Part shown: one piece after another, positions 1 to 17,446 of the stretch | Position numbering within the stretch: position 1 is the stretch's first letter | Layout: each line of letters opens with the position of its first letter | Source: Candidatus Omnitrophota bacterium | GTDB lineage: Bacteria; Omnitrophota; Gorgyraeia; 2-01-FULL-45-10 | Length of the DNA stretch: 64,000 nt | Assembly (NCBI GenBank): GCA_903843285.1 | Contig: CAIMPC010000068.1 | Location: 1,200 to 65,199, forward strand | Direction: 5' to 3' | Position numbers and translations under genes: made by a program | Notes under the pieces: model-generated | The model's input: the letters and a program-made list of their open reading frames with translations, nothing else | What the model was told of the DNA's origin: nothing | Databases searched by the model: none

Positions 1-1204
1 GATTGAGAAAACATTAAAGGATGCCATAGGGTCTTTTCCCGCTGTTTTTATCGGTGGACCGAGAAGGTCGGGGAAAACGACTTTATCAAAGGCGTTTCTC
101 AAGGGGTATAATTATGTGCTTCTTGATGAGATAGATATACGTTCACTGGCTATTGAGGACCCTCGTGGCTTTCTGGAAAAATATCCACCCCCTATTATTA
201 TTGACGAGATTCAAAACGCCCCTACCCTCTTATCGCATATCAAAGCTCGTATTGAACATAATAAGAAGCCGGGTCAGTGGATTCTCACCGGTTCTCAGCA
301 GTGGGCCCTAGTGAAAGGTATTAGTGAAACCTTGGCTGGTCGTATTGCTATTTTACATTTGTTTCCATTTTCTCTGGAAGAAGTACAAAAGATCGGGCGG
401 TTTCATTTGAGTTCAGCAGATGAATTTATAAAGGATCTTCTACAATCTAAAAAACTTCCGGATAAGTTTGTGCCGGTTGGAAAGTGGATTTTAGGGGGAG
501 GATACCCGGAGGTTGTGCTTAATAGGAGAATGTCTCGTAAACTATGGTTTTCCAGTTATCTGCAGACCTATGTGGATCGCGATGTCCGCGGGTATATCAA
601 ACAGTCAAACCTTCACGACTTTGAGAGATTTGTAAAGCTTTTGGCTTCGCGTACAGCTCAGGAGCTGAATTGTTCGACGCTTTCACGAGATATCGGCGTT
701 TCGGTTCCTACTATAAAATCATGGCTCACTCTTTTGGAGGCAAGCGGCCTCATATTTTTCCTAATGCCTTATCATAACAATTTCGGTAAACGACTTATTA
801 AAGCGCCAAAATGTTATTTTATCGATACAGGGCTTGTTTCATATCTTGTCGGGCTTCAGGATGAAGACCATGCGCTTGAAGGACCTATGGCAGGTGCACT
901 CTTTGAGACGGCATGCGTCTCCCAGTTTTATAAACGCTTTTCCGCTTTTGCCGACCCTTGCTCACTTTATTATTATCGTAGTACTGATGGGTTAGAAATA
1001 GATCTATTGATTGAGACCGGCAAAATGATCTATCCTGTTGAAATAAAATTGTCTTCCACAATTAATTATGGTCGTGTTAGTTCTTTAATAAAATGGCTGG
1101 AAATCTCACGCATCAAAGATGCTCGAGGATTGGTAATTTCCACTTCCAAAGAACTAGGGATCATGGGAAAGAATGTGATAAATTGTCACTACTCTTTGAT
1201 TTAG
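1..1204 (+). CDS. AAA+ ATPase, DUF4143 family; 5'-partial because the reading frame is open from base 2
   Basis: The frame continues upstream of the track ORF to the window edge. A Walker A motif GGPRRSGKTTL is encoded at about 40-75. Overall length and the C-terminal DUF4143-like region fit the ATP-binding protein family often found in mobile or defence islands. Confidence 0.65.
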   Translation, partial: IEKTLKDAIGSFPAVFIGGPRRSGKTTLSKAFLKGYNYVLLDEIDIRSLAIEDPRGFLEKYPPPIIIDEIQNAPTLLSHIKARIEHNKKPGQWILTGSQQWALVKGISETLAGRIAILHLFPFSLEEVQKIGRFHLSSADEFIKDLLQSKKLPDKFVPVGKWILGGGYPEVVLNRRMSRKLWFSSYLQTYVDRDVRGYIKQSNLHDFERFVKLLASRTAQELNCSTLSRDIGVSVPTIKSWLTLLEASGLIFFLMPYHNNFGKRLIKAPKCYFIDTGLVSYLVGLQDEDHALEGPMAGALFETACVSQFYKRFSAFADPCSLYYYRSTDGLEIDLLIETGKMIYPVEIKLSSTINYGRVSSLIKWLEISRIKDARGLVISTSKELGIMGKNVINCHYSLI

Positions 1205-1222
1205 AATGGGCTGCAGCAATTC

Positions 1223-3649
1223 ATGGATACATCGAGCGAAATCAAGTTTCTTAAAGCAAAGGTCGCATTATTAGAGACAGAGAAAAAGCACCTCATTCAG
1301 AAATTAGCTGATTTAGAAGAGAAAAAATCCGAAGCACCTCATAATATATTATCCTCACGCATTAACAATCCTATAGTAGTTTCCGCAGAAAGCAGCTCCG
1401 ATTTTACCATCGAACAAAAAATACAGTTATTAAGGAATGCCTTCCGCGGCCGCGAAGATGTTTATGCCAAGTCGTGGGTTAATAACCGGACAGGTAAGCG
1501 CGGATACAGCCCAGTCTGTAAAAACGAATGGGTTCGGTCTTTTTGTCGTAAACCCGCCGTTAGGTGTTCCGAGTGCCCCAATCAGCAGTTTCTGCCTTTT
1601 GATGATATTGCTATTCGCCAGCACTTGGATGGTCGGCAAGTTATTGGTGTTTATCCTATGCTCAAGAACGAGAGCTGTTATTTTTTAGCTATAGATTTTG
1701 ATAAAGAAAACTGGCTTGAGGATATCCGGGCGATTATGACAACTTGTCGTGGAGAAGGGATCCCTGCGGCCGTAGAGCGGTCGCGCTCGGGAAGCGGTGG
1801 GCATGCCTGGATTTTCTTCAGCGAAGAAGTGCCGGCGATTTTAGCGCGTAAGCTCGGAAGCTCTTTAATTACCAAGACCATGGCTCGGCGATATCAGATA
1901 GATATGAAAAGCTATGATCGGATATTTCCTAATCAGGACACAATGCCCAAGGGTGGGTATGGAAACTTGATTGCACTTCCATTCCAGAAAGAAGCATCGC
2001 AGATAGGAAACAGTGTTTTTATTAATGATCATGGAGTGCCTTATCCTGACCAGTGGGCGTTTTTATCATCTGTTGGCAAAATGTCTTATCGAGATGTCGA
2101 GGCAGTCGTGGATGATGCTTCAAAGACCGGACAGATCATCGCGGTGCGGCAGAGCCCTATCGAGGAGAACGACGAGCCATGGATGCGCTTACCTTCTGGT
2201 AAACGTCGTTTCAAAGTTGATATCAGTGAATTACCGGAGGCACTGGATGCTGTTCTTGCGAACCGGCTATATATCAAGATAGGGGAAGGACCCTCTGTTT
2301 TGGTCAATCAGCTTAAGCATTTGGCCGCATTCCAGAATCCTGAGTTTTACAGAAAGCAAAAAATGCGGTTTTCGACGCATGCTACGCCGAGGATTATTTG
2401 TTGTGCGGAGATTATTGATGGATATCTGTCTTTGCCGCGAGGGTGTCTGGATGATGTTAAAGCTTTGCTTGATGAGTATGGTGTGCGGTTGAATATTGAT
2501 GATAAACGTTTTGTTGGCCGTGAGGCAAATTTTGTTTTCAATGGTGTGCTTACGATTGAACAGGAGGGGGCATTAAAGGAAATACTGGATTCTGACTTTG
2601 GCGTGTTTGTCGCTCCTCCGGGTATGGGAAAGACAGTTTTGGCGCTTGCCGCAGTGGCCAAGCGAAAGACTAATACATTAATTCTTGTCCACCGCAAACC
2701 TCTGATGGATCAATGGCGTTTACAGGCATCTTCACTTTTTGATATCAATAAGAAGGAGGTCGGTCAAATTGGTGGTGGGAAGAATAGGTCGAATGGTGTT
2801 ATTGATGTCGCCATGGTTCAGAGCATGGATTTGACGAATGGCGTAGACGATCGCATTATGGATTATGGCTTCGTTATCATTGATGAATGTCATCATGTCG
2901 GTGCAGTGTCATTTGAGAAGGTTTTGGCGCAAGTTAAAGCGAGATATGTGTTGGGTTTAACCGCGACACCATACCGCCGTGATGGTCACCAGCCGATTAT
3001 TCATATGCAGTGCGGGCCCATTTGTCATCAGATTAAGCAAAAAGATTTTTCCGCGCATATTTCGAGTTCGCAGGTTATTACGCGACCAACAGAGTTTGAT
3101 TATCCCTGGAGTGACGATTCAAGAATATCTGATCTGTGGAGTCAATTGCTCAAAGACAGCCAGCGTAACGATAAAATTGTTGATGATATTCTTGCTAATG
3201 TAGATGAAGGACGGTTTCCGTTGATTTTAACGGAGCGTCGGGAGCATCTGGAGATTCTCGCGGAGCGCCTACAGGACAAGATTGATTTTCTCGCCATTTT
3301 GTATGGAGGTATGGGGCGTAAGGATCAGCGAGAAATCTTTGACCAAATTAAAAAGAGTGCCGAGGGTTCGCGGCGTGCTATTTTAGCCACAGGATCGTAT
3401 ATTGGCGAAGGTTTTGACGAACCGCGTCTGGACACGCTTTTTCTGACGATGCCCAGCTCGTTCAAAGGTAAGATTGTTCAATATACAGGGCGTTTGCACA
3501 GGTATCATCATGATAAGCATGATATTAGGATTTATGACTACGTTGATTCCCGATTGCCGATTTTGGAAAGGATGTTTAAGCGCCGTTCGAAGACGTATAA
3601 ATTATTGGGGTATGAGATTAGAGATCACCTGAGGGTTAATGATCAATGA
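1223..3649 (+). CDS. Fusion protein: N-terminal coiled-coil, Zn-knuckle, PrimPol (archaeo-eukaryotic primase) domain, C-terminal SF2 DEAH-like helicase
   Basis: The Zn-knuckle reads C-x7-C-x7-C-x2-C (CKNEWVRSFCRKPAVRCSECPNQ). AEP motif I is FLAIDFD (DxD) and motif II is SGSGGHAWIFF. Helicase motif I is PPGMGKT, motif II is IIDECHH, motif III is GLTATP, and a C-terminal RecA-like domain follows. The gene begins 18 nt after the upstream ATPase. Confidence 0.65.
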   Translation: MDTSSEIKFLKAKVALLETEKKHLIQKLADLEEKKSEAPHNILSSRINNPIVVSAESSSDFTIEQKIQLLRNAFRGREDVYAKSWVNNRTGKRGYSPVCKNEWVRSFCRKPAVRCSECPNQQFLPFDDIAIRQHLDGRQVIGVYPMLKNESCYFLAIDFDKENWLEDIRAIMTTCRGEGIPAAVERSRSGSGGHAWIFFSEEVPAILARKLGSSLITKTMARRYQIDMKSYDRIFPNQDTMPKGGYGNLIALPFQKEASQIGNSVFINDHGVPYPDQWAFLSSVGKMSYRDVEAVVDDASKTGQIIAVRQSPIEENDEPWMRLPSGKRRFKVDISELPEALDAVLANRLYIKIGEGPSVLVNQLKHLAAFQNPEFYRKQKMRFSTHATPRIICCAEIIDGYLSLPRGCLDDVKALLDEYGVRLNIDDKRFVGREANFVFNGVLTIEQEGALKEILDSDFGVFVAPPGMGKTVLALAAVAKRKTNTLILVHRKPLMDQWRLQASSLFDINKKEVGQIGGGKNRSNGVIDVAMVQSMDLTNGVDDRIMDYGFVIIDECHHVGAVSFEKVLAQVKARYVLGLTATPYRRDGHQPIIHMQCGPICHQIKQKDFSAHISSSQVITRPTEFDYPWSDDSRISDLWSQLLKDSQRNDKIVDDILANVDEGRFPLILTERREHLEILAERLQDKIDFLAILYGGMGRKDQREIFDQIKKSAEGSRRAILATGSYIGEGFDEPRLDTLFLTMPSSFKGKIVQYTGRLHRYHHDKHDIRIYDYVDSRLPILERMFKRRSKTYKLLGYEIRDHLRVNDQ

Positions 3650-3733
3650 GCTTAGGACTTGGTTTACCAAAACTCCTGTAACAGCCCAGTAATATAACAA
3701 CCTTTGCCATTGAGGAAACCGTTGCCGATCGAG

Positions 3734-3777
3734 AAGCTGGAAGTGAAAATAGTTAAGTGGGAAGAGCGAAGACATGA
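3734..3777 (+). promoter_or_regulatory. Purine-rich 44-nt leader motif, copy 1 (AAGCTGGAAGTGAAAATAGTTAAGTGGGAAGAGCGAAGACATGA), upstream of the membrane-protein gene
   Basis: It matches 38 of 44 positions of a second copy at 4578-4621. It lies 4 nt before the ATG at 3782. It contains several GGA/GAAG motifs. Confidence 0.4.
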
Positions 3778-3781
3778 TAAT

Positions 3782-4579
3782 ATGGCTACTATGAATACAA
3801 GGATAAAAAATAGAGTTCCGCATATCATTTTCCTATATTGGATTATTAAGATAGTAGCAACAACTTTAGGGGAAACCGGAGCAGATATGTTTTCCATGAC
3901 CCTTAATTTAGGTTATTGGGTTACAATTGCAATATTCATGAGCATATTTCTCATATTGCTTGTGATTAAACTTTCCTTGAAAGGCTATCACCCATTAGTT
4001 TATTGGCTAACTTTTATCGCATCGGCCATAGCAGGTACCGCAATATCCGATTTCATAGATCGTACATTAGGGCTTGGTTATGCGGCAGGATCCGTTATTT
4101 TGATAGCGATCTTATTGGTAGTTCTGGCGGCTTGGTACAAAAAAGAAAAATCAATAAGCGTAGAATATATTACTACACCTATAGCTGAAATTTTTTATTG
4201 GGTAGCTTTTTTAATTGCAAACACACTAGGAACAGCAGCGGGAGACTTTTTTGCTGATAATATGGGGCTTGGTTTTATGAACAGTGCAATTTTGATATCC
4301 GTAGTACTCATTACTGTAGCTTTATTGCACTTCTTTACAAAGATTTCCAATATACTACTATTCTGGGTGGCATTTGTTTTGACAAGGCCATTTGGCGCTA
4401 CATTCGGTGATTTTCTTACCAAAACCAGCACAAAAGGAGGGGTTAACTTCGGCACAGTTGCTTCTTCGATAGTTATTTGTGTGATTTTTGTTATTGTAAT
4501 TCACATAGAAACTAACCTAGAAAAGAAGAGGTGGGCGATTGACCCTCCCCACCTTGATAAAGATGATGCCGCTCTCTAA
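3782..4579 (+). CDS. Integral membrane protein with four tandem ~35-aa repeats (G-x-x-G-x-D-F ... LGLGY followed by a TM helix), DUF347/COG4705-like
   Basis: The repeats are GETGADMFSMTLNLGY, GTAISDFIDRTLGLGY, GTAAGDFFADNMGLGF and GATFGDFLTKTS, each followed by a hydrophobic helix. The track ORF starts at 3704; I chose the ATG at 3782 because the leader motif sits just upstream. Confidence 0.45.
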   Translation: MATMNTRIKNRVPHIIFLYWIIKIVATTLGETGADMFSMTLNLGYWVTIAIFMSIFLILLVIKLSLKGYHPLVYWLTFIASAIAGTAISDFIDRTLGLGYAAGSVILIAILLVVLAAWYKKEKSISVEYITTPIAEIFYWVAFLIANTLGTAAGDFFADNMGLGFMNSAILISVVLITVALLHFFTKISNILLFWVAFVLTRPFGATFGDFLTKTSTKGGVNFGTVASSIVICVIFVIVIHIETNLEKKRWAIDPPHLDKDDAAL

Positions 4580-4621
4580 GCTGGAAGCGGAAATAGTTAA
4601 GCGTGAAGAGTGAAGACACGA
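4578..4621 (+). promoter_or_regulatory. Purine-rich 44-nt leader motif, copy 2, followed by a 7-codon uORF (MNTTDEL, 4627-4650) whose stop overlaps the rluB-like start (ATGA)
   Basis: The sequence AAGCTGGAAGCGGAAATAGTTAAGCGTGAAGAGTGAAGACACGA starts at the stop codon of the upstream gene. Twenty-five nt later comes atgaacactaccgatgagttaTGA, which overlaps the ATG at 4647. Confidence 0.4.
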
Positions 4622-4646
4622 CCCTTATGAACACTACCGATGAGTT

Positions 4647-5363
4647 ATGATAAAAAACTCGAATAAGTTTGCCTTAGAACGTGCCTTGTCGAAGCTGGGC
4701 ACGGCTTCCCGCAGTCAGACCCGGGCATGGATCCTGGAGGGACGGCTGAGTGTTAACGGGAAGGTGGTTAAAGACCCCTTTCGCATGATTACCCCGGGCA
4801 AAGACAAGATTGCTTTAGATGGGGAAGAAGTGCAGAAGAAGGGCTGGAAAACGATCCTGTTATATAAGCCGAGATCCGTCGTGACGACCAGGTTCGACGA
4901 ACATGGCCGCAACACCGTCTTCGATCTCTTACCCAAAGAATTGAAATCTCTTCATCCTGTGGGCCGTCTGGACATGGCGACGACCGGACTATTGCTACTG
5001 ACCAACGATACGAGTCTATCTGCTTATTTGACCGACCCTGCCAATGCCATTAAGCGCACCTATGTAGTCTCCGTTAATGGTAAGGTTACGCCCGAGGAAA
5101 TCCAGAAGCTCGTCCGGGGCATTTACGACAGGGGCGAATTTTTAAAGCCGTTAAAAATAATCCTGCGCAAAGCCAGTAATAAAGAGTCTCATCTGATCGT
5201 GGAGTTAACCGAGGGAAAAAATCGGGAGATTCGCAGGATATTCGAATCTATAGGCCGCGAGGTAACGAGCCTTAGGCGCATTGCCTTCGGTCCTATGAAG
5301 CTGGGAGAGATGCAGCCCGGGCAGTTTCGTTACCTGAGTCCCGAAGAGATCAAAATCACTTAA
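4647..5363 (+). CDS. Pseudouridine synthase, RsuA/RluB/RluE family (S4 domain plus catalytic domain)
   Basis: N-terminal S4-like RNA-binding region. The catalytic motif HPVGRLDMATTGLLLLTNDT carries the conserved Asp. Length is 238 aa. Confidence 0.8.
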   Translation: MIKNSNKFALERALSKLGTASRSQTRAWILEGRLSVNGKVVKDPFRMITPGKDKIALDGEEVQKKGWKTILLYKPRSVVTTRFDEHGRNTVFDLLPKELKSLHPVGRLDMATTGLLLLTNDTSLSAYLTDPANAIKRTYVVSVNGKVTPEEIQKLVRGIYDRGEFLKPLKIILRKASNKESHLIVELTEGKNREIRRIFESIGREVTSLRRIAFGPMKLGEMQPGQFRYLSPEEIKIT

Positions 5364-8799: not shown

Positions 8800-10191
8800 A
8801 TGCCCCATAATAAGATCCCCTCTACGGGCCGGTATGTCAATTCAGGCTCAGGCCCTACGATTCAACCTATCGACATAGGCCATCCGCACTATGTGGGACT
8901 GGTGGACGCTGATACCGCGTTTTGGTCGCTGGTTAGGCGCGACAGCTTGTCCGACGTTCTGCGCGACAGCGCGCTACTCACATCCTACATGAGAAAGAGG
9001 GAATCTTTCCGAAAAGAGATGCACAGGCTTCGCTTCGGATTAAAGCCCTCCGCCGTATATTTTAATATCACCGAAAGATGCAATCTCAATTGCCGTTATT
9101 GTTATATTCCTGGGGATATGCGCCGTAATGGGAAACACATGTCCGAGGATAAGGTGATAGAGGCCCTCCGGACGCTTAAGCAATATTTTAATAAAACGAT
9201 AGATAGAAAATTAGTGCCTAAGATAATTTTCCATGGGGCCGAACCTCTGCTTAATAAAAAAGCATTGTTCACTGCCATTGAAAAATTTGGGAAAGATTTC
9301 ACATTCGGGGTGCAAACGAACACTGTCCTATTGGATGCCGAAACAGTCGCGTTTTTGAAATCGAAAAAAGTAAGCATCGGTATATCACTCGACGGCCCGA
9401 CGGCCGGAATAGTTAACAAAACCAGGGCGAGCTGGTCCGGGGAAGGCGTCTTCGAACACGTTATGAAGGCGATGGAGCTGTTAAGGAGCTACGATGCATG
9501 GAGCGTGATATGCACCGTCACTACCGAAAATATGCGTTCCCTTCCGGGGTTCGTCAATTTTTTACATAAGAATGAAGTTCCGACATGTCTTTTAAATGTT
9601 GTCAGATGCACGCTTCCCTCCGCCCGCAAAATCAAACCCGATGATGCGGTCGTCGCGCGGCACTTTATCGATGCGCTCGAGACGAGCTATAAGCTTTATA
9701 AAGAAAGCGGACGAAAACTGGTGGTGGGTAATTTTGCGAACATATTGATCAGCATACTTGCTCCGACGGCGCGCAGGCTGATGTGCGATATTTCACCCTG
9801 CGGGGGAGGTAGAAGCTTTTTTGCGCTGGCGCCGAGCGGTGATATATTTCCCTGCAGTGAATTTATCGGATTGAAACATTTCAAAGGCGGCAACATTTTT
9901 AAGGATAGCGTAAAAGATATCTTAAAGAGCGGCCCATTCAAACTGGTAACGGAAAGAAAAGTGGAAGATATTGAACCATGCCGCCGCTGTGCCATTCGGC
10001 ATTTTTGCGGATCGCCCTGTCCCGCCGAAGCATATGAGATGAACGGCGGAATGAATAAGACAGGCTCATTCTGCGGGTTCTATGAAGAGCAGGCCCGATA
10101 TGCTCTGCGTCTCATAGCGGATAATAAACATACTGCTTTTCTGTGGGACGGCTGGGATCGCGGCACCAAAGAGATATTTAACGTCATATAG
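8800..10191 (+). CDS. Radical SAM/SPASM-domain protein with a ~95-aa N-terminal extension
   Basis: The CxxxCxxC motif is CNLNCRYC in YFNITERCNLNCRYCYIP. The C-terminal SPASM Cys cluster reads CRRCAIRHFCGSPCPAEAY...SFCGFY. The N-terminal extension before the rSAM core could be an RRE-like domain. Confidence 0.8.
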   Translation: MPHNKIPSTGRYVNSGSGPTIQPIDIGHPHYVGLVDADTAFWSLVRRDSLSDVLRDSALLTSYMRKRESFRKEMHRLRFGLKPSAVYFNITERCNLNCRYCYIPGDMRRNGKHMSEDKVIEALRTLKQYFNKTIDRKLVPKIIFHGAEPLLNKKALFTAIEKFGKDFTFGVQTNTVLLDAETVAFLKSKKVSIGISLDGPTAGIVNKTRASWSGEGVFEHVMKAMELLRSYDAWSVICTVTTENMRSLPGFVNFLHKNEVPTCLLNVVRCTLPSARKIKPDDAVVARHFIDALETSYKLYKESGRKLVVGNFANILISILAPTARRLMCDISPCGGGRSFFALAPSGDIFPCSEFIGLKHFKGGNIFKDSVKDILKSGPFKLVTERKVEDIEPCRRCAIRHFCGSPCPAEAYEMNGGMNKTGSFCGFYEEQARYALRLIADNKHTAFLWDGWDRGTKEIFNVI

Positions 10192-10314
10192 AGATTTTAA
10201 GTAATTCAAAGTTGTATTCCTGAGCAAAATTCCCCATCCTGTTTCTGAGGGCTTGTTATTATCACGGCCGTGGTGTAAAATCGTGTTAATTGTAAAAAGG
10301 AGGATTATCATACT

Positions 10315-11307
10315 ATGAAGAAGATACTGCAAATTATAATCGCCATAGTTACCATACTATCTTTACCGCAGGCGCACGCCGAGGATAATATGCCTCTAAA
10401 GCTCGCCGCAAAAATTACACTACCCAAAGTACGCGGGCGAATAGACCATATGGCGGTAGACCTGAAGAACGATCGCTTGCTCATAGCCTGCGCAGGCAAT
10501 AATACGCTGGAGGTCGTGGATTTAAGAGCGGGTAAGCATCTTTACAGCGTTGCCGGGTTTAAAAAGCCGCAAGGGGTGGTATGTGTATCGGAATATAATA
10601 AGATCTATGTCACGAACGGCGGAAACGGTGAATGCGATATTCTGGACGGAGATTCTCTAAAATTAATTAACGGCATACCGCTATCCGACAATGCGGATAG
10701 TATTCGTTACGAACCATCGGGTAAATTGATCTATGTGGGATACGGTAAAGGGGCCATCGGTATTATTGACCCTTCGACAGATAAGCTTATCAGCCGCTTC
10801 AGCATCGATGGACACCCGGAATCTTTTCAGGTCGAGAGCTCCGGCAATAGAATATATGTTAATGTGCCGGAGGCAGGCAATATTTCAGTGATCAATAAAG
10901 CAAGAGGAGGGATCGTTGACAGATGGCCTCTGCCGAACTTAAAAGGTAATTTTTCGATGGCGCTGGATGAGGCCGGATACAGGGCATTTGTGGGTTGTGG
11001 CGAGGCGCCAACGCTCGTGGTATTTAATACCAAGGCCGGAGAATATGTGGCTAAAATGAAGATCGACAAAGACGCCGACGATATCTATTATGATCAGGCG
11101 CGTAAACGCATCTATATTTCATGCGGCAGTGGTTTCATAGATTGTTTCAGCAGTGACGGAGCCGACCATTATACCAATATAGCTAAGATAAAGACTCCTG
11201 TCGGTTCACGCACCTCGCTATTTGTGCCGGAACAGAACCGGTTTTATGTCGCAGTCCCGTCCCATGGTAAACAGCCTTCGGAGGTCTGGGTTTACGATGC
11301 CCAGTAA
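10315..11307 (+). CDS. Secreted YVTN/YncE-type beta-propeller repeat protein
   Basis: Signal peptide MKKILQIIIAIVTILSLPQAHA. Repeated blade-like segments follow (YVTNGGNG, IYVGYGKG, RIYVNVPEAGN, RFYVAVPSHG). RBS AAAAGGAGGA. Confidence 0.6.
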   Translation: MKKILQIIIAIVTILSLPQAHAEDNMPLKLAAKITLPKVRGRIDHMAVDLKNDRLLIACAGNNTLEVVDLRAGKHLYSVAGFKKPQGVVCVSEYNKIYVTNGGNGECDILDGDSLKLINGIPLSDNADSIRYEPSGKLIYVGYGKGAIGIIDPSTDKLISRFSIDGHPESFQVESSGNRIYVNVPEAGNISVINKARGGIVDRWPLPNLKGNFSMALDEAGYRAFVGCGEAPTLVVFNTKAGEYVAKMKIDKDADDIYYDQARKRIYISCGSGFIDCFSSDGADHYTNIAKIKTPVGSRTSLFVPEQNRFYVAVPSHGKQPSEVWVYDAQ

Positions 11308-11399
11308 TAACCAAAGCCCCACGGCGGATAAGGCCGTCGCGTTATACACGTCTTAAGACTATCGCATGACTTTCAAATAAGGATGATAGATAACCCAAA

Positions 11400-13037
11400 G
11401 TGCGGACACATCTTTCGAATAAGATAATATCCGACCCATTCAAAACAAATATTTTATCATGGGCCATTGTGTGTTTTGTGATAATATGCGCGAGCCTGAT
11501 AAAGATCCGTTTACTGGGAATGCCGCTTGAGCGCGACGAGGGCGAGTACGCCTACATCGCTCAGCTTTTTTTGCACAAAGCGCCTTTATACATAAATGCC
11601 TATAGCATGAAACTCCCGGGCATATATTTTATATATGCGATTGTCATAAAACTTTTCGGCCATAGCATACAAAGTATACATCTGGGCCTTACCGTAATAA
11701 CCGGCATAACGGGCGTGCTGGTATTTGTATTGGCGAAGCGGCTGTTCAATCCTATAACCGGCGTCGTAGCCGGCATATCTTACATGCTACTCACCATGGG
11801 CAAGTATACGCTGGCCTTTAATATCGAACATGCGGTTATGCTGTTTGTCGTAGGGGGAACCATTCTGCTGATGGAGCCCGCAGGGGGCAGTCGGCGGTTA
11901 TTCATCAGTGGTTTAATGTTCGGTCTCGCATTTATAACAAAACAGCATGCAATATTTTTCATAGCATTCGCATCTGCCTATATAGTATGGGGTCATTTAA
12001 AAGCTCATGCCTCGTCATATGCGCCTTGCGTAAATAGATTGCGCATATTTCTATCCGGGGCGGTATTGCCCTTTATCTTAGTATGCATATTCTTGGCCTG
12101 GCAGGGTGTATTTAATGTTTTTTGGTTCTGGGCCTTCACGTATTCTGCAAAGTACTGCGGCATAATAAAATTTAAAGACGGTATCGAGAATCTTTTCTAC
12201 ACAGCGAATAAGATTATAGGCTGTTCGCCCCTGATATGGCTCGCCGGGGCCTTCGGTATTGTCGTAATGAAATTGGACTCCAGCACCCGGTCGAATATGG
12301 TCATTGTGTCGGGATTTGTTATAGCCTCTATTCTTGCCGTAGTGCCCGGGCTCTATTTTCGCCACCATTATTTTATTTTCATATTTCCTGCCCTGGCCAT
12401 CCTGGCGGGCAGGGCCGTTCATTATGCATGGCAGCGCCTGTCTGCATCGCCCTTATCCGGTGGATACCGAAAGTCGATTATGGCCACCCTATTTATCCTC
12501 CTCTTTGGCATTTCGATATTTCATCAGAGGAAATTCTTATTTAAGATGGATACCGCAGAAGCCGTAAATGATATCTATATAACATCCCCTATAGTCGAGA
12601 CGATGGAGATAGCTAAGTATATCGAAAAACATTCCGATAGCAGTAAGAGCGTCGTGGTGTTTGGCTCGGAGCCCCAGATATTTTATTACTTAAATAGGTT
12701 CTCGCCGATCAGCTACATATATGTGTATCCGCTCATGGAAGAGACTCGGTATGTTTTAAATTTGCAGAAGAATTTTATAAAGCAGGTCGAATCGGCCAAT
12801 GCGGACTATCTGGTATATGTGAATGTAAGCACGTCATGGTTTAACAGATATATAAATAAAGCTATAGCATATCCGCTATTTGAATGGATGCACGCTTATC
12901 AGAAGAGGTATTATGATATAGTGGGCGTTATAGATATGATCTCGCGCAATAACAGTGTCTATGTCTGGGATTCTGAGGTGATCAAATATAGACCGAAGTC
13001 GGATAGTTTTATATACGTACTGAAGCGAAAAGAATAA
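11400..13037 (+). CDS. GT-C fold membrane glycosyltransferase, PMT/ArnT (GT39/GT83)-like
   Basis: Multi-TM protein. A DE motif (ERDEGEYAY) sits in the first periplasmic loop, as in the dolichyl-phosphate-mannose protein mannosyltransferase / ArnT family. Confidence 0.55.
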   Translation: MRTHLSNKIISDPFKTNILSWAIVCFVIICASLIKIRLLGMPLERDEGEYAYIAQLFLHKAPLYINAYSMKLPGIYFIYAIVIKLFGHSIQSIHLGLTVITGITGVLVFVLAKRLFNPITGVVAGISYMLLTMGKYTLAFNIEHAVMLFVVGGTILLMEPAGGSRRLFISGLMFGLAFITKQHAIFFIAFASAYIVWGHLKAHASSYAPCVNRLRIFLSGAVLPFILVCIFLAWQGVFNVFWFWAFTYSAKYCGIIKFKDGIENLFYTANKIIGCSPLIWLAGAFGIVVMKLDSSTRSNMVIVSGFVIASILAVVPGLYFRHHYFIFIFPALAILAGRAVHYAWQRLSASPLSGGYRKSIMATLFILLFGISIFHQRKFLFKMDTAEAVNDIYITSPIVETMEIAKYIEKHSDSSKSVVVFGSEPQIFYYLNRFSPISYIYVYPLMEETRYVLNLQKNFIKQVESANADYLVYVNVSTSWFNRYINKAIAYPLFEWMHAYQKRYYDIVGVIDMISRNNSVYVWDSEVIKYRPKSDSFIYVLKRKE

Positions 13038-13082
13038 CCCGCATGATACATTTTTTCGACATGATGGTATAATAAGAGACTG

Positions 13083-13200
13083 CCTGCGAAATACCCAACT
13101 CCGCGTCATTCTGAACGAAGTGAAGAATCTCGACGGTAAATAGATTCTTCGGTCGGCCGATGACCTCCCTCAGAATGACGGAAGTTGCATTTCGCAACAG
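13083..13200. repeat. Palindromic MITE/REP-like intergenic element, copy A (~118 bp, nested inverted repeats)
   Basis: Inverted pairs are tgcgaaat/atttcgca, cgtcattctga/tcagaatgacg and gaagaatct/agattcttc, around a centre near 13137. It shares the GCGTCATTCTGAGG and GAAGAATCT cores with copies at 25247-25325 and 59218-59310. Confidence 0.6.
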
Positions 13201-13222
13201 TCCCAATAAAACAAGTGATAAA

Positions 13223-14158
13223 ATGAAAACCAAGATAATATTATTTTTAGCTTTCCTAATAGTTTTTGGCATAGGCTCATTTTTTATTTATAAGGGCTAT
13301 AGAGATCATCGCCGGCAGATCGTGATGGATAAGATCCTATCGGAAAAGAAGGAAAAGGCGTGGCTAAGCCTAAGGAAGACATTAGAGGATAGGATAGAGC
13401 ACTTTAATGGCATCGTCTGCGTTGTCATAGAAGATTTAGGTTCCCTCAGGCAGATCCGTTTTAACGAGGACATTCCCATTCCTTCGGCAAGCTTAGTAAA
13501 GGTCCCCATATTGCTCTCATGTTTCTACGCCGCGCAGGATAAAAAGATCCAGCTCGAGGACGTAGTAAATATCAGGCCTTCAGATAGGGTGGCCGGTTCA
13601 AAAGTATTGGGGAACAGATCCGCGGGTTGTAAATTTACGATAAAAGAATTATTCGAGCCCATGATAACAGAGAGCGATAATACTGCGGCAAACGCCCTTA
13701 TAGATTGCTTGGGGTTTGATGTATTGAATTCATATTTTAAAAAGATTGGTTTAAGGAACACCAACATTTTACGAAAGATGATGGATTTTGAAGAAAGAAA
13801 AGAGGGAAGAGAGAACTATACCACCGCCCGGGACATGGCTTATCTCATGAGGAGATTATATTGCAAGGATTTCTTAAATAAAGGCGTATCCACACAATGT
13901 CTGAAATTGCTCGAACAACAGAAGATAAACGATCGCATACCGAAAAGACTGCCCAAAGACGGCATGCGCATCGCCCATAAGACGGGCTTGGAAAAACATA
14001 TCTGCCATGATGTGGGAATTGTATTCAGTCCCAATGGTGATTTTTTAATATGCGTTTTGATCAAACATAAGGATAAGACTGCGGTTAGCGCAAAAAAACT
14101 TATTTCAGATATCGCGCTACTTACGTATAATTATTATAATCTGCATTTTAAAATGTAA
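13223..14158 (+). CDS. Class A beta-lactamase-related serine hydrolase, membrane-anchored or secreted
   Basis: SxxK is in PSASLVKVPIL, SDN in ESDNTAANAL and KTG in HKTG. The track ORF starts at 13160 inside the hairpin repeat; the ATG for MKTKIILFLAF at about 13223 follows the repeat. Confidence 0.55.
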   Translation: MKTKIILFLAFLIVFGIGSFFIYKGYRDHRRQIVMDKILSEKKEKAWLSLRKTLEDRIEHFNGIVCVVIEDLGSLRQIRFNEDIPIPSASLVKVPILLSCFYAAQDKKIQLEDVVNIRPSDRVAGSKVLGNRSAGCKFTIKELFEPMITESDNTAANALIDCLGFDVLNSYFKKIGLRNTNILRKMMDFEERKEGRENYTTARDMAYLMRRLYCKDFLNKGVSTQCLKLLEQQKINDRIPKRLPKDGMRIAHKTGLEKHICHDVGIVFSPNGDFLICVLIKHKDKTAVSAKKLISDIALLTYNYYNLHFKM

Positions 14159-14176
14159 ATAAAGATCCGGAGGTTT

Positions 14177-15601
14177 ATGGACGATTATACGATCATGGAC
14201 AGCGCCCGACAGAAATGGCTGATAGCCCTGGCCTCGATAACGGTCTTCATGTTCAGCATAGACTATAGCCTGGTCAATATTTCATTGCCCTCGATCGCGA
14301 AATATTTTACAGCCACGATAGCGCATGTCTCGATGGTGCCGCTGGCGTATCTGCTGGTGGTGACCAGCACCGTACTTTTGTTCGGGAAGCTCGGAGATAT
14401 AATAGGATATAAGAAGATATTTGTAACGGGACTCGTAATTTTTGTCACAGGAACTTTCTTCTGCAGTATCGCGCCTACGTTGAACATCCTCTTAGGTCTA
14501 AGGGTTTATCAGTGCATCGGGGAAGCGATGTTCAGCCCTATGGCGATCGCGCTGGTTATGGTTTTATTGCCGCCGTCGATCCGCGGCAGGGCCCTTGGCC
14601 TAATGGCGACGGCTCAGGGGGCGGGTTTTTGTCTCGGTTCGCTATTAGGCGGGGGCATTAATAATTATCTGGGATGGCGGGGGATATTTTATATAAATAT
14701 TCCGATAGGCATATGCATGATAGTCCTGGCCGTTAAGATGATCCCGTCGAAACAGCGGCAAGCCGCGGATAGCCGTATAGATTTTATAGGCGCGATCCTG
14801 GCGTTTATATCGCTCTCCGCTTTCATCTACGCCATCAATTCGATCTCAAGTCTGGGGTTGAGAAACCAATCTGTAATTTTGTGTTTTTTAATATCCGCCA
14901 TTACACTGTTTTTATTTGTATTACAGGAGATCCGTACGCCGAATCCGATACTCCACATGCCGCTATTCTTAAACCGCGATTTTACGTTTGCCACCGCTTC
15001 GGCATTTTGCGTCGTCTTTGTGTATATGGGGTTGATATTTTTACTGCCCTTTTATTTAAATATGGTCCGGGGTATAAACATGATGTCGGCCGGACTTCTG
15101 CTTATGATACCGGCATTGATGGTTATAATCTTTGCGCCCATAGCAGGGATTTTATCGGACAGGTTCGGCTCCAGGGTAATATGCACCATAGCTATAGCCA
15201 TGACAACGATCGCGTTCTTTATTCTATCAAGGCTTGCCGCCGGCTCACCCATACATAGCATCATGCCTTCGCTGGTGCTATCCGGCATAGCAATAGGATC
15301 TTTCTTGCCGGCGAATAACAAATTAGTTATGATACAAGCTCCATCGGATAAGCAGGGTATGGCCTCGGCCGTCTATAAGATAATCAACTCCACGGGCGGC
15401 GTCTTCGGATTAGCCGTACTGCCATTGGTTCTGATAAAGAAGGTGTATGCTCAGGCCGAGTCGATGCATATAAATATGGCCTCGGCTAAAAACAGTCCGG
15501 AAATTTTGGCGGCAGGATTTGACGCGGCTTTTAAATTTGGCATGTTGGTTTGCTTAGCCGGATTGATCTTCGCCGCCCTGGCACGGGATAAGAAGCCGTA
15601 G
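14177..15601 (+). CDS. MFS transporter (DHA2-like, about 14 TM)
   Basis: Hydropathy fits an MFS transporter. Motif A-like sequence GKLGDIIGYKKIF lies between TM2 and TM3. Length is 474 aa. Confidence 0.75.
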   Translation: MDDYTIMDSARQKWLIALASITVFMFSIDYSLVNISLPSIAKYFTATIAHVSMVPLAYLLVVTSTVLLFGKLGDIIGYKKIFVTGLVIFVTGTFFCSIAPTLNILLGLRVYQCIGEAMFSPMAIALVMVLLPPSIRGRALGLMATAQGAGFCLGSLLGGGINNYLGWRGIFYINIPIGICMIVLAVKMIPSKQRQAADSRIDFIGAILAFISLSAFIYAINSISSLGLRNQSVILCFLISAITLFLFVLQEIRTPNPILHMPLFLNRDFTFATASAFCVVFVYMGLIFLLPFYLNMVRGINMMSAGLLLMIPALMVIIFAPIAGILSDRFGSRVICTIAIAMTTIAFFILSRLAAGSPIHSIMPSLVLSGIAIGSFLPANNKLVMIQAPSDKQGMASAVYKIINSTGGVFGLAVLPLVLIKKVYAQAESMHINMASAKNSPEILAAGFDAAFKFGMLVCLAGLIFAALARDKKP

Positions 15602-15629
15602 TATAATGATTAAACGATAGGATGGCGGA

Positions 15630-16472
15630 ATGAAGATCAATATCGCGAAAAGCGCAGGTTTCTGTTTCGGTGTAAGGCGCGCCATACAGATCGCCATGAA
15701 AGCCGCCCGGAGCGGACGTGAAGTCTATATGCTCGGTGATATCGTCCATAACGAGGTGGTCGTCGGTAAGCTGAAAGATTCAGGCGTGAAGAAAATTAAA
15801 TCCCTCGGCCCGGGCCGGGGCAGAACCCTCCTTATACGCGCGCATGGCGCACAGGCCGGCACCATATCCGGCGCCCGAAGCGCGGGATATAATATCATCG
15901 ACGCCACGTGCCCGATGGTCAAAGAGATACACGCGATCGCGAAGAAACTGGAAGATGAGGGCAGGATGGTCATAATAATAGGTGATAAGGAGCACGACGA
16001 GGTGCGTGGTATCGTCGGGCAGTTAAATAAAAAGCCGATCATCATCAGTTCTCTCGCAGATGTAAAACTCAAAAGGCTCCACCGCATCAAGGGCGTCGGT
16101 ATAGTAGTTCAGTCGACGCAGGAAGAGTCGAAGGTGATGGAAATAGTGGCGCGCATTAAAAAATATATCGGTGACGTTGCCTTTAAAAATACCATATGCG
16201 ATCCAACGAAATTGAAACAGAGTCAGGCGAAGACACTACCCGCCGAGAATGACGTAGTGGTGGTGGTCGGATCGAGATCCAGCGCAAATACAAAACGTCT
16301 CTATCAGATATCCCGCCGACTTAACAGAAGGACGTATTGGGTGAACTCGCCGGGCGAGATCAGGCCTTCATGGTTTAAAGAGGCAGGGTCGGTAGGCATT
16401 ACAGCGGGGGCATCTACCCCCGAGAGCTCCATAAAGAAAGTCGCGGAGGGCATAAAAAATCTATGCGCATAG
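15630..16472 (+). CDS. ispH: 4-hydroxy-3-methylbut-2-enyl diphosphate reductase IspH/LytB
   Basis: The N-terminus MKINIAKSAGFCFGVRRAIQIA carries the conserved Cys. It is 280 aa with two further Cys-containing segments typical of IspH. Confidence 0.85.
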   Translation: MKINIAKSAGFCFGVRRAIQIAMKAARSGREVYMLGDIVHNEVVVGKLKDSGVKKIKSLGPGRGRTLLIRAHGAQAGTISGARSAGYNIIDATCPMVKEIHAIAKKLEDEGRMVIIIGDKEHDEVRGIVGQLNKKPIIISSLADVKLKRLHRIKGVGIVVQSTQEESKVMEIVARIKKYIGDVAFKNTICDPTKLKQSQAKTLPAENDVVVVVGSRSSANTKRLYQISRRLNRRTYWVNSPGEIRPSWFKEAGSVGITAGASTPESSIKKVAEGIKNLCA

Positions 16473-16951
16473 TAAAAATATATATCATAGCTATTCTGGT
16501 GATGCTATCGACATGCGGCATAGCAATGTGCGGCATGGATGAAGACCGCGCAAAAATAAAGACGCCTGAGGATATTGCCAAACTGCTTTCAAAAGAATAT
16601 TCCTACGAATGGCGGATAGCATCTAAATGGCATACTGCCGAGGAGACCTTAGAGTCGAAGCGGGGAAGTTGTAAAGATCTTGCCACGCTGAGCCAGTCGC
16701 TATTGGCCGATATAGGTATACGTTCCGACATAATAGTGATCAGGTTTAAAGGGCTGAAAATATCACACGCTGTATGTACCTGGATGGATGAAGGGGGATA
16801 CAGTTTTATGACGAATAGAGGATACGTGAAGACCGGAGCGCAATCTCTGGAGGGCGCGTTAGACGCATACTATCCGGACTGGAAAGAGATAGTTTTCACT
16901 ACACCCGATGGTAAATACGGAGAGGTTATCAAATCGGATGACAATAGGTAG
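16463..16951 (+). CDS. Secreted transglutaminase-like (Cys-His-Asp) small protein, paralog 1
   Basis: Signal peptide. The Cys motif is KRGSCKDLATLSQSLLADIGIRSD and the His motif is KISHAVCTW. It is about 60% identical to the adjacent paralog. Confidence 0.45.
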   Translation: MRIVKIYIIAILVMLSTCGIAMCGMDEDRAKIKTPEDIAKLLSKEYSYEWRIASKWHTAEETLESKRGSCKDLATLSQSLLADIGIRSDIIVIRFKGLKISHAVCTWMDEGGYSFMTNRGYVKTGAQSLEGALDAYYPDWKEIVFTTPDGKYGEVIKSDDNR

Positions 16952-17446
16952 GTGATAATGCGCATAACAAAGATTCTTATCGCGGCGATCTCGATAATTC
17001 TCTTGTCATATCATATGGGCTATTCTGATGTCGAGAAGGATCGATCGGATATACAGTCACCGAATGACGTCGCCAAGTGGCTGTCAAAAGAGTTCACTTA
17101 CGAATGGCAGATACCTACGCCATGGCAGAGCGCGCAGGAGACCATGAATTTAAAACGGGGCAGCTGCATGGATTTTGCCATTCTCAGCCAGTCTCTTTTA
17201 TCAAGGATGGGTGTTCACTGCGACATAGTTATAATAAAATTTAAGAATTTAAAAATTGCACACGCCGTATGCGCCTGGAAAGACAAAAAAGGTTACAGTT
17301 TTATGACGAACAAGGAATATGTGCAGACCAGGGCACACTCCTTAAGGGATGCCGTAAATAAATACTATCCTGACTGGAAAGAGATAGTTTTCACAACTCC
17401 CGACAAACGGCAGGGCGAAATAATAAGATCGGATGATAACGGATGA
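16952..17446 (+). CDS. Secreted transglutaminase-like small protein, paralog 2 (tandem duplicate)
   Basis: It has KRGSCMDFAILSQSLLSRMGVHCD, KIAHAVCAW and a shared C-terminal YYPDWKEIVFTTPD. Confidence 0.45.
   Translation: MIMRITKILIAAISIILLSYHMGYSDVEKDRSDIQSPNDVAKWLSKEFTYEWQIPTPWQSAQETMNLKRGSCMDFAILSQSLLSRMGVHCDIVIIKFKNLKIAHAVCAWKDKKGYSFMTNKEYVQTRAHSLRDAVNKYYPDWKEIVFTTPDKRQGEIIRSDDNG

Follow-up and report, generated by a model that had tools for sequence, protein, structure and literature searches.

What is a gene for a fused primase and helicase doing at the left edge of an Omnitrophota contig, and how did it get there? The question is raised by a 64,000-nt stretch of contig CAIMPC010000068.1 (positions 1,200 to 65,199, forward strand; assembly GCA_903843285.1, Candidatus Omnitrophota bacterium), hereafter the window. 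An 808-residue protein that joins an archaeo-eukaryotic primase (AEP) domain to a superfamily 2 (SF2) helicase domain of DEAH type is encoded there, directly behind a gene for a DUF4143 ATPase. A preliminary description, made from the sequence alone, read the two genes as a recently acquired module with an architecture found in plasmid or phage replication initiators and in some conflict systems. The explanation favored here, which is held with good confidence, is that the window carries a gene of the family of the enhancer of insertion sequence (IS) excision (IEE) of Escherichia coli. This gene would lie on an acquired, repeat-bracketed segment of about 4.7 kb (DUF4143, IEE-like gene, DUF347) in a probable Omnitrophota chromosome, beside a decayed integrase and an IS21-type element. 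Direct support comes from homology to IEE, conservation of catalytic residues, foreign codon usage, the repeat-bounded layout, and probable co-transcription of the first two genes. The window gene is a member of a known and characterized family. Residual interest lies in its compact island, its pairing with an ATPase of the PDC-S01 type, and the TOTE label that Pfam gives to its primase domain.

Membership in the IEE family

The IEE-like gene occupies positions 1223..3649 on the forward strand and was assigned by BLASTP and Pfam. Its product aligns with IEE of E. coli O157 (ECs_1305) over 743 collinear residues, with 45% identity, 62% positives, and a score of 646 bits. The reference protein was taken from the Sakai chromosome, where RefSeq annotates it as 'IS-excision enhancer IEE'. 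Three Pfam families cover the window protein, namely PF22548 (1.5e-95; residues 65-294, positions 1415..2104), ResIII (2.1e-22; residues 447-585), and Helicase_C (1.2e-6; residues 652-761). The last two form an SF2 helicase-like core at positions 2561..3505. E. coli IEE matches PF22548 at 1.7e-98, and ResIII and Helicase_C likewise. Among solved structures, 7nqf and 7nqd (E ~2e-6) come nearest to the AEP domain, and XPB/Rad25 and RadD to the helicase domain.

All IEE residues that have been defined experimentally or structurally are intact in the window protein, and their conservation was scored in a family alignment of 46 sequences. In the AEP domain, D142/D144, H178, D216, and Y128 of IEE correspond to D158/D160 (motif A, DFD at 158-160), H194 (motif B, GGHAW at 192-196), D232 (motif C), and Y144, which are kept in 45-46 of the 46 sequences. 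In the helicase domain, K451 and R735 of IEE correspond to the Walker A residue K470 (GMGKT at 467-471) and the Arg finger R757, and DECHH has its counterpart in DECHH at 554-558; all three are present in every sequence of the alignment. A TATP motif follows at 581-584. Inside the AEP domain, four cysteines (C99/C108/C115/C118; nt 1517-1576) are conserved in 41-42 of the 46 sequences. The N-terminus carries a heptad-like, coiled-coil segment (residues ~5-36, positions 1235..1330), with hydrophobic a/d positions I7, L10, V14, L17, L24, L28, and L31 assigned by reading the sequence. E. coli IEE and the consensus of the family both retain its I..L...I..L pattern.

On the strength of full-length collinear homology, AEP motifs with the accompanying tyrosine, and an SF2 DEAH domain with Walker A and Arg finger, the protein is a full-length homolog of E. 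coli IEE and a member of the 'Z1568-like' AEP-SF2 family. The preliminary description had recognized both open reading frames (ORFs) correctly, since Pfam confirms the DUF4143 ATPase and returns PF22548, ResIII, and Helicase_C for the primase-helicase. The five motifs it named were all located, and the protein has the heptad-like N-terminus and the conserved four-Cys cluster besides. Its statement that characterized fusions of this kind carry a superfamily 3 (SF3) helicase does not hold, as E. coli IEE is itself a characterized AEP-SF2 (DEAH) fusion (PMC9943667).

IEE comprises 786 residues, with an N-terminal 'Z1568-like' AEP domain and a C-terminal DEAH SF2 helicase domain (PMC9943667). According to the same paper, this architecture had already been described in Iyer et al. 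2005. The two proteins are of similar length (808 versus 786 residues) and share the order of heptad segment, four-Cys cluster, AEP, and DEAH SF2 helicase. Both genes also lie in horizontally acquired DNA near integrase and IS sequences. They differ in host, which is a gammaproteobacterium for IEE and probably a member of the Omnitrophota for the window gene. Their contexts differ too: iee of the integrative element SpLE1 follows an AlpA, DUF3987, and Rep-like module, whereas the window gene follows a DUF4143 ATPase. In the Sakai SpLE1 locus (L061, 35091-41314), iee stands after AlpA, DUF3987, and the Rep/YagK-like module, close to the SpLE1 integrase, with fragments of IS30, IS66, and IS3 downstream. 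The apparent novelty of the window protein is corrected by this comparison: AEP-SF2 fusions make up the IEE family, whose genetics date from 2011 and whose biochemistry dates from 2023. What the window adds is a member with all its catalytic residues preserved, from an uncultivated candidate phylum and on a compact, repeat-bounded island.

Expected activities

The polymerase activity of E. coli IEE depends on Mn and is error-prone; the protein also joins ends through microhomology and promotes transposase-dependent IS excision (PMC9943667). In vivo, it raises the transposase-dependent excision of elements of the IS3, IS1, and IS30 families (10.1101/2023.06.07.543989). These families form circles and presumably move by copy-out-paste-in, a class that also holds IS21 (10.1101/2023.06.07.543989). 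By analogy, the AEP domain of the window protein would act as a Mn2+-dependent, error-prone DNA polymerase, and the SF2 domain as an ATPase that depends on DNA and keeps hold of the upstream duplex without unwinding it (PMC9943667). Both domains might together synapse 3' ends via microhomologies of at least 4 nt, which would permit either end joining or, while copy-out replication is under way, strand switching. Copy-out-paste-in insertion sequences would as a result be excised in a transposase-dependent manner, and deletions would accompany their excision (PMC9943667; 10.1101/2023.06.07.543989). The polymerase and end-joining activities, like any IS-related role in the Omnitrophota host, are thus projected from E. 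coli IEE.

A functional analogy is also offered by eukaryotic DNA polymerase theta, which combines a polymerase with an SF2 helicase-like ATPase and promotes microhomology-mediated end joining (MMEJ; PMC11724360). Its A-family polymerase is unrelated in fold to AEP and its domain order is reversed, and no homology is claimed.

Foreign codon usage and the extent of the segment

Codon usage was compared with that of 60 downstream genes, and the background of per-gene codon-likelihood z has a mean of -0.16, a standard deviation of 1.4, and a minimum of -2.97. Far below this minimum lie the DUF4143 gene (z = -6.9), the IEE-like gene (-8.6), and the gene that follows it, a DUF347 membrane-protein gene at positions 3722..4579 on the forward strand (-7.4; Pfam DUF347 3.1e-58). 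Relative to the same 60 genes, the first two genes differ strongly in their choice of Ile codons (chi2 = 110.9, p = 8e-25), and Arg codon choice differs as well (p = 2e-7). G+C content at third codon positions (GC3) is 0.38, 0.44, and 0.35 for the three genes, against a background of 0.544 +/- 0.047. The first gene with native usage (z = -1.8, GC3 0.61) is that of a pseudouridine synthase at 4647..5363, forward strand, with S4 and PseudoU_synth_2 domains, which forms the flank of the island. Past the first three genes, the codon-outlier test returned no outliers across the window.

These deviant statistics are compatible with recent horizontal acquisition. They bear out both the divergent codon usage and the recent transfer proposed in the preliminary description, which had set the return to native usage at about 3.8 kb. 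The return lies further downstream: since DUF347 is as atypical as the two genes before it, the foreign segment ends near 4.6 kb and not at 3.65-3.8 kb. DUF347 probably belongs to the same acquired segment.

A second Omnitrophota metagenome-assembled genome (MAG), L016, has a background codon usage that is ATT-rich and low in GC3 and resembles that of the island. The housekeeping genes Thioredoxin_3 and DsbD_2, downstream in the window, are 73-77% identical to their L016 counterparts. This comparison is consistent with an Omnitrophota host, a variable hotspot, and a donor of lower GC3, and the locus may be a hotspot common to both genomes. At 9932-16437, L016 carries a divergent IEE homolog (55% identity) with a HEPN gene before it, a few kilobases upstream of Thioredoxin_3 and DsbD_2.

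Upstream sequence, repeats, and island boundaries

An exact look-up of the window protein led to the same contig in two further assemblies, JGI 3300025162 (L062) and ENA ERZ27313068 (L063). For 13.6 kb, L062 and the window have the same sequence, with window position equal to L062 position minus 1298. Both contigs run out some 2.5 kb before the start of the IEE-like gene, at breakpoints 98 nt apart, and the fact that two independent assemblies break here suggests a multi-copy IS. The first 105 nt of L062 encode an IstB-like C-terminus (the last 34 codons), which matches the IstB_IS21 profile only in its final 29 positions, at E = 0.008, below the Pfam cut-off. At L062 ~240-917, a 173-residue ORF encodes a tyrosine integrase catalytic domain that belongs to a 90%-identity cluster with members of 355 residues. 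Nucleotide homology to an intact 355-residue copy (L068) extends from codon ~130 to 93 nt beyond the stop. Because this homology begins only at codon ~130, the gene is 5'-truncated and has lost its first ~130 codons. The truncation is most simply explained by the insertion of an IS21-type element, which would also break the assemblies.

Downstream of the integrase, three copies of a 72-nt direct repeat punctuate the locus. Copy A (L062 1108-1179) falls outside the window, 119-190 nt before its first position. It is followed by a sigma70-like promoter with 11 of 12 matches (L062 1247-1274; 8 nt before the DUF4143 start), the DUF4143 gene (L062 1282-2502), and the IEE-like gene (L062 2521-4947). 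Copy B (L062 5012-5083; window 3714..3785) is degenerate, with 65% identity to copy A (nhmmer E = 1.6e-25), and is situated between the IEE-like gene and DUF347 (L062 5020-5877). Copy C (L062 5856-5927; window 4558..4629) is 88% identical to copy A and is a candidate for the island's right-hand edge; the pseudouridine synthase gene (L062 5945-6661), with its native codon usage, comes next. All three copies lie on the forward strand. DUF4143, IEE-like, and DUF347, the three codon-atypical genes, are precisely those enclosed by copies A and C, and every copy stands just 5' of a transcription unit. These three copies are the only ones in the 64-kb window and all fetched loci. We infer that copies A and C are att-like junction remnants of one or two insertions. 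In one frame, both of these copies terminate an ORF with '..AAL*'.

The repeat shows no significant hairpin (folding against shuffles gave z = +0.4 to -1.7) and no Rfam match, and a tRNA search of L062 and L063 returned no target site. An integron reading, with gene cassettes and attC sites, was rejected on the missing hairpin and Rfam match and on the occurrence of the integrase unit elsewhere without the repeat. A GTTRRRY match found by eye in the repeat is at chance-level expectation. The preliminary description had placed the rest of the element upstream and pointed to an integrase, att repeats, or a tRNA as its possible signs. A truncated integrase and an IstB/IS21-like fragment do lie there, and the 72-nt repeats are candidate att remnants; the integrase is not demonstrably part of the module, however, and L062 and L063 contain no tRNA.

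Pairing with the DUF4143 ATPase

The gene upstream of the IEE-like gene covers positions 1..1204 of the window on the forward strand, its first 17 nt lying beyond the window edge, and encodes 406 residues in full on the extended contig. Its product matches Pfam AAA_14 (1.7e-26) and DUF4143 (9.1e-46) and the PADLOC candidate PDC-S01 (5.4e-99). This last profile, 422 positions long, is matched near full length, residues 2-392 aligning with its positions 17-409. In the catalogue, PDC-S01 stands as a defense candidate of one gene, as yet unvalidated, in which an ATPase is fused to a PD-(D/E)xK-type domain (PMC12988326; PMC3424549). A gap of only 18 nt separates the DUF4143 gene from the IEE-like gene, no terminator is predicted between them, and the strong sigma70-like promoter precedes the former. 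Judging from this arrangement, the two genes are probably co-transcribed.

Comparable pairs recur in some lineages. Among 52 assessable genome loci, the upstream same-strand gene encodes an analogous NTPase in 21, of the types SLFN_AlbA_2/HATPase_c_4(-wHTH) (13), DUF4143 (6), and ATPase_2 (2). In an independent metagenome set, such an NTPase was found upstream in only 3 of 69 assessable loci. A general NTPase-IEE operon was therefore rejected on the 40% adjacency in genome loci versus 3/69 in metagenome loci, and on the lack of partner co-divergence; the adjacency is lineage-specific. DUF4143 partners are 23-38% identical where the IEEs next to them are 57-77% identical. The reverse relation holds for another Omnitrophota MAG (L052), whose DUF4143 gene is 87% identical to that of the window in protein and 81% in nucleotides, whereas the adjacent IEE is 58% identical in amino acids and 64% in nucleotides. 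Between L052 8461-9728 and L062 1237-2503, homology extends from 45 nt upstream of DUF4143 to exactly the stop codon. In this comparison, the gene for the NTPase seems to have been swapped on its own, as one self-contained piece. Most likely, the IEE-like gene and the gene of the DUF4143 (PDC-S01) ATPase use one promoter but are separate island genes, the ATPase being swappable and no obligate partner.

The neighbors of IEE homologs at other loci are variable island genes. Of 79 metagenome loci (L069-L148), 11 contain an AbiEii toxin gene, which in six of them is directly upstream of and co-directional with the IEE homolog, and AbiEi antitoxin-like genes are found nearby too. Further recurrent neighbors are HEPN genes, DNA methylases, HsdR of restriction-modification systems, RhuM, SLFN-type ATPases, and integrases. 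Clustering of the 79 metagenome loci returned no conserved partner. For research on IS control and on defense candidates, the pairing with PDC-S01-type ATPases, confined to certain lineages, offers a modest lead.

Size and distribution of the family

A word-indexed protein search returned at least 8,000 family proteins, and the matches listed share a uniform architecture of ~800 residues. Candidatus Omnitrophota MAGs supply the closest of the matches listed, at 82-87% identity. The window genome is absent from the GTDB representatives, where the best match has 85% identity. An exhaustive search of 1.84 billion representatives gave 3,217 clusters (50% identity) at E <= 1e-30, with more than 150 near-full-length matches. 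By tblastn, the family was found on 117 of 72,556 plasmids, 49 of the 117 being conjugative. The 15 best of these 117 matches lie on replicons of 78 kb to 1.4 Mb, and the plasmid homologs are annotated merely as 'DEAD/DEAH box helicase'. The same type of search against 50,697 phage genomes gave no matches, and two IMG/VR contigs carry a family member. This distribution suits a cargo gene of islands and large plasmids, not the replicase of small replicons or viruses.

Many family members are longer, at 930-1,100 residues (L025-L033, L038, L051, and L058, from Oscillospiraceae and relatives, and P0144-P0287). Since alignments stop near query residue 800, these members bear extra terminal extensions. 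The long Firmicutes members are found downstream of an SLFN_AlbA_2-HATPase_c_4-wHTH gene, inside integrase-bearing elements.

Weighing the alternatives

The most substantial rival treats the two genes as a conflict or defense module, either TOTE-like or of a new kind directed against mobile elements, in which the DUF4143 AAA+/PD-(D/E)xK-type ATPase senses or cuts invading DNA and the AEP-helicase serves it as an effector or as a partner in repair. Each gene has a PADLOC match (PrimPol at 2.2e-91 alongside PDC-S01), the pair is probably co-transcribed, an analogous NTPase stands upstream in 21 of the 52 genome loci, and the neighborhoods are rich in defense and toxin-antitoxin genes. The Pfam name of PF22548 is 'TOTE conflict system AEP', where TOTE stands for TPR, OB, TBP, and Effector (Aravind, Iyer & Burroughs 2022, as cited in PMC12458937), and the window AEP does match that model at 1.5e-95. 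However, the partner genes of TOTE were found neither in the window locus nor in related loci: the genes of L062 encode no TPR, CSD/OB, or TBP proteins, and among 186 flanking proteins scanned from 55 related loci, each of these families has fewer than two members. Since PF22548 also matches E. coli IEE, the TOTE name reflects homology of the domain and not membership in the system. The conflict-system role raised in the preliminary description is not supported, given the missing TOTE partner genes. In practice, the Pfam model is an IEE family model that joins two literatures, and a domain name is no proof of system membership. Further objections to a module are the low frequency of upstream NTPases in metagenome loci (3/69), the lack of co-divergence between DUF4143 and IEE, with L052 homology ending at the DUF4143 stop codon, and the standing of PDC-S01 as a single-gene, unvalidated candidate (PMC12988326). 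A defense module is accordingly judged unlikely. A broader version is improbable as well; it holds that NTPase-IEE pairs in Omnitrophota, Planctomycetota, and some Firmicutes are two-gene anti-mobile-element modules, to which the 72-nt repeats add a non-integron cassette-capture site. Here one of several interchangeable 'orphan' NTPase-nuclease/wHTH genes (DUF4143/PDC-S01, SLFN_AlbA_2-HATPase_c_4, or ATPase_2-DUF234), repeatedly found just upstream of an IEE-family gene, would sense or cleave the target, and IEE would contribute a microhomology-guided polymerase step. If true, it would provide a mechanistic context for IEE and also for PDC-S01, a candidate that is very common.

A replication initiator of an integrated plasmid or phage-like element, modeled on ORF904 of pRN1, was the other role suggested in the preliminary description. 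It would account for the fusion of AEP with a helicase, an arrangement shared with the replicative primase-helicases of mobile elements, in which AEP is N-terminal to an NTPase or helicase; it would also suit the integrase remnant and IS upstream and the location of the E. coli homolog in SpLE1. Those replicases carry an SF3 (or MCM/DnaB-type) helicase, whereas the window protein has an XPB/RadD-like SF2 domain (ResIII/DEAD), not SF3, superfamily 4, or MCM, and its characterized homolog shows ATPase activity without unwinding (PMC9943667). A pRN1 ORF904-type replicase was rejected on this helicase type and on the absence of the family from the phage records; the two IMG/VR contigs and the large size of the best-matching plasmids argue in the same direction. 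No conserved replication, partition, or structural genes lie adjacent, and the repeat-bounded segment holds three genes only. This role is thus highly improbable. Less credible still is a CRISPR-associated primase-polymerase (CAPP) that takes part in spacer acquisition, even though the PADLOC model matched at 2.2e-91 is that of a CAS-associated PrimPol, NCBIfam PrimPol_Msp is matched at 4.5e-25, and 7nqf and 7nqd are CAPP entries according to the HHpred result in 10.1101/2023.06.07.543989. The AEP catalytic domains are homologous, but CAPPs, such as that of Marinitoga, are linked to cas genes and lack such a DEAH helicase fusion. At 88.2 bits, the NCBIfam equivalog score stays below its cut-off of 200, the annotation of 13.6 kb of contig shows no cas genes, the 64-kb window has no CRISPR-like array, and cas families are absent among the recurrent neighbors.

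Several points also weigh against the favored explanation of an IEE-family gene on an acquired, repeat-bracketed segment. The repeat copies have no exact common core, and a search for an empty site through the flanking pseudouridine synthase showed that all contigs with that gene also carry DUF347 and IEE; the island boundaries and the insertion mechanism are therefore deduced from the layout. The integrase unit ends about 100 nt before copy A and has other neighbors in L068, so it adjoins the module and may not belong to it. The sole IS evidence is the 34-residue IstB-like fragment at the contig end (E = 0.008); no intact IS or transposase was demonstrated in the window, of which the remaining 60 kb were not screened for transposases. 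On the functional side, 45% identity with IEE is no guarantee of the same role in vivo, and the cellular mechanism of IEE itself is debated between MMEJ and strand switching.

Repeated sequences elsewhere in the window

Farther into the window, two pairs of exact 20-mers were observed, at 16877-16896/17372-17391 (spacing 495 nt) and 17681-17700/17783-17802 (102 nt). The first pair falls inside two adjacent ORFs of similar size (16463-16951 and 16952-17446), which are probably tandem paralogs.

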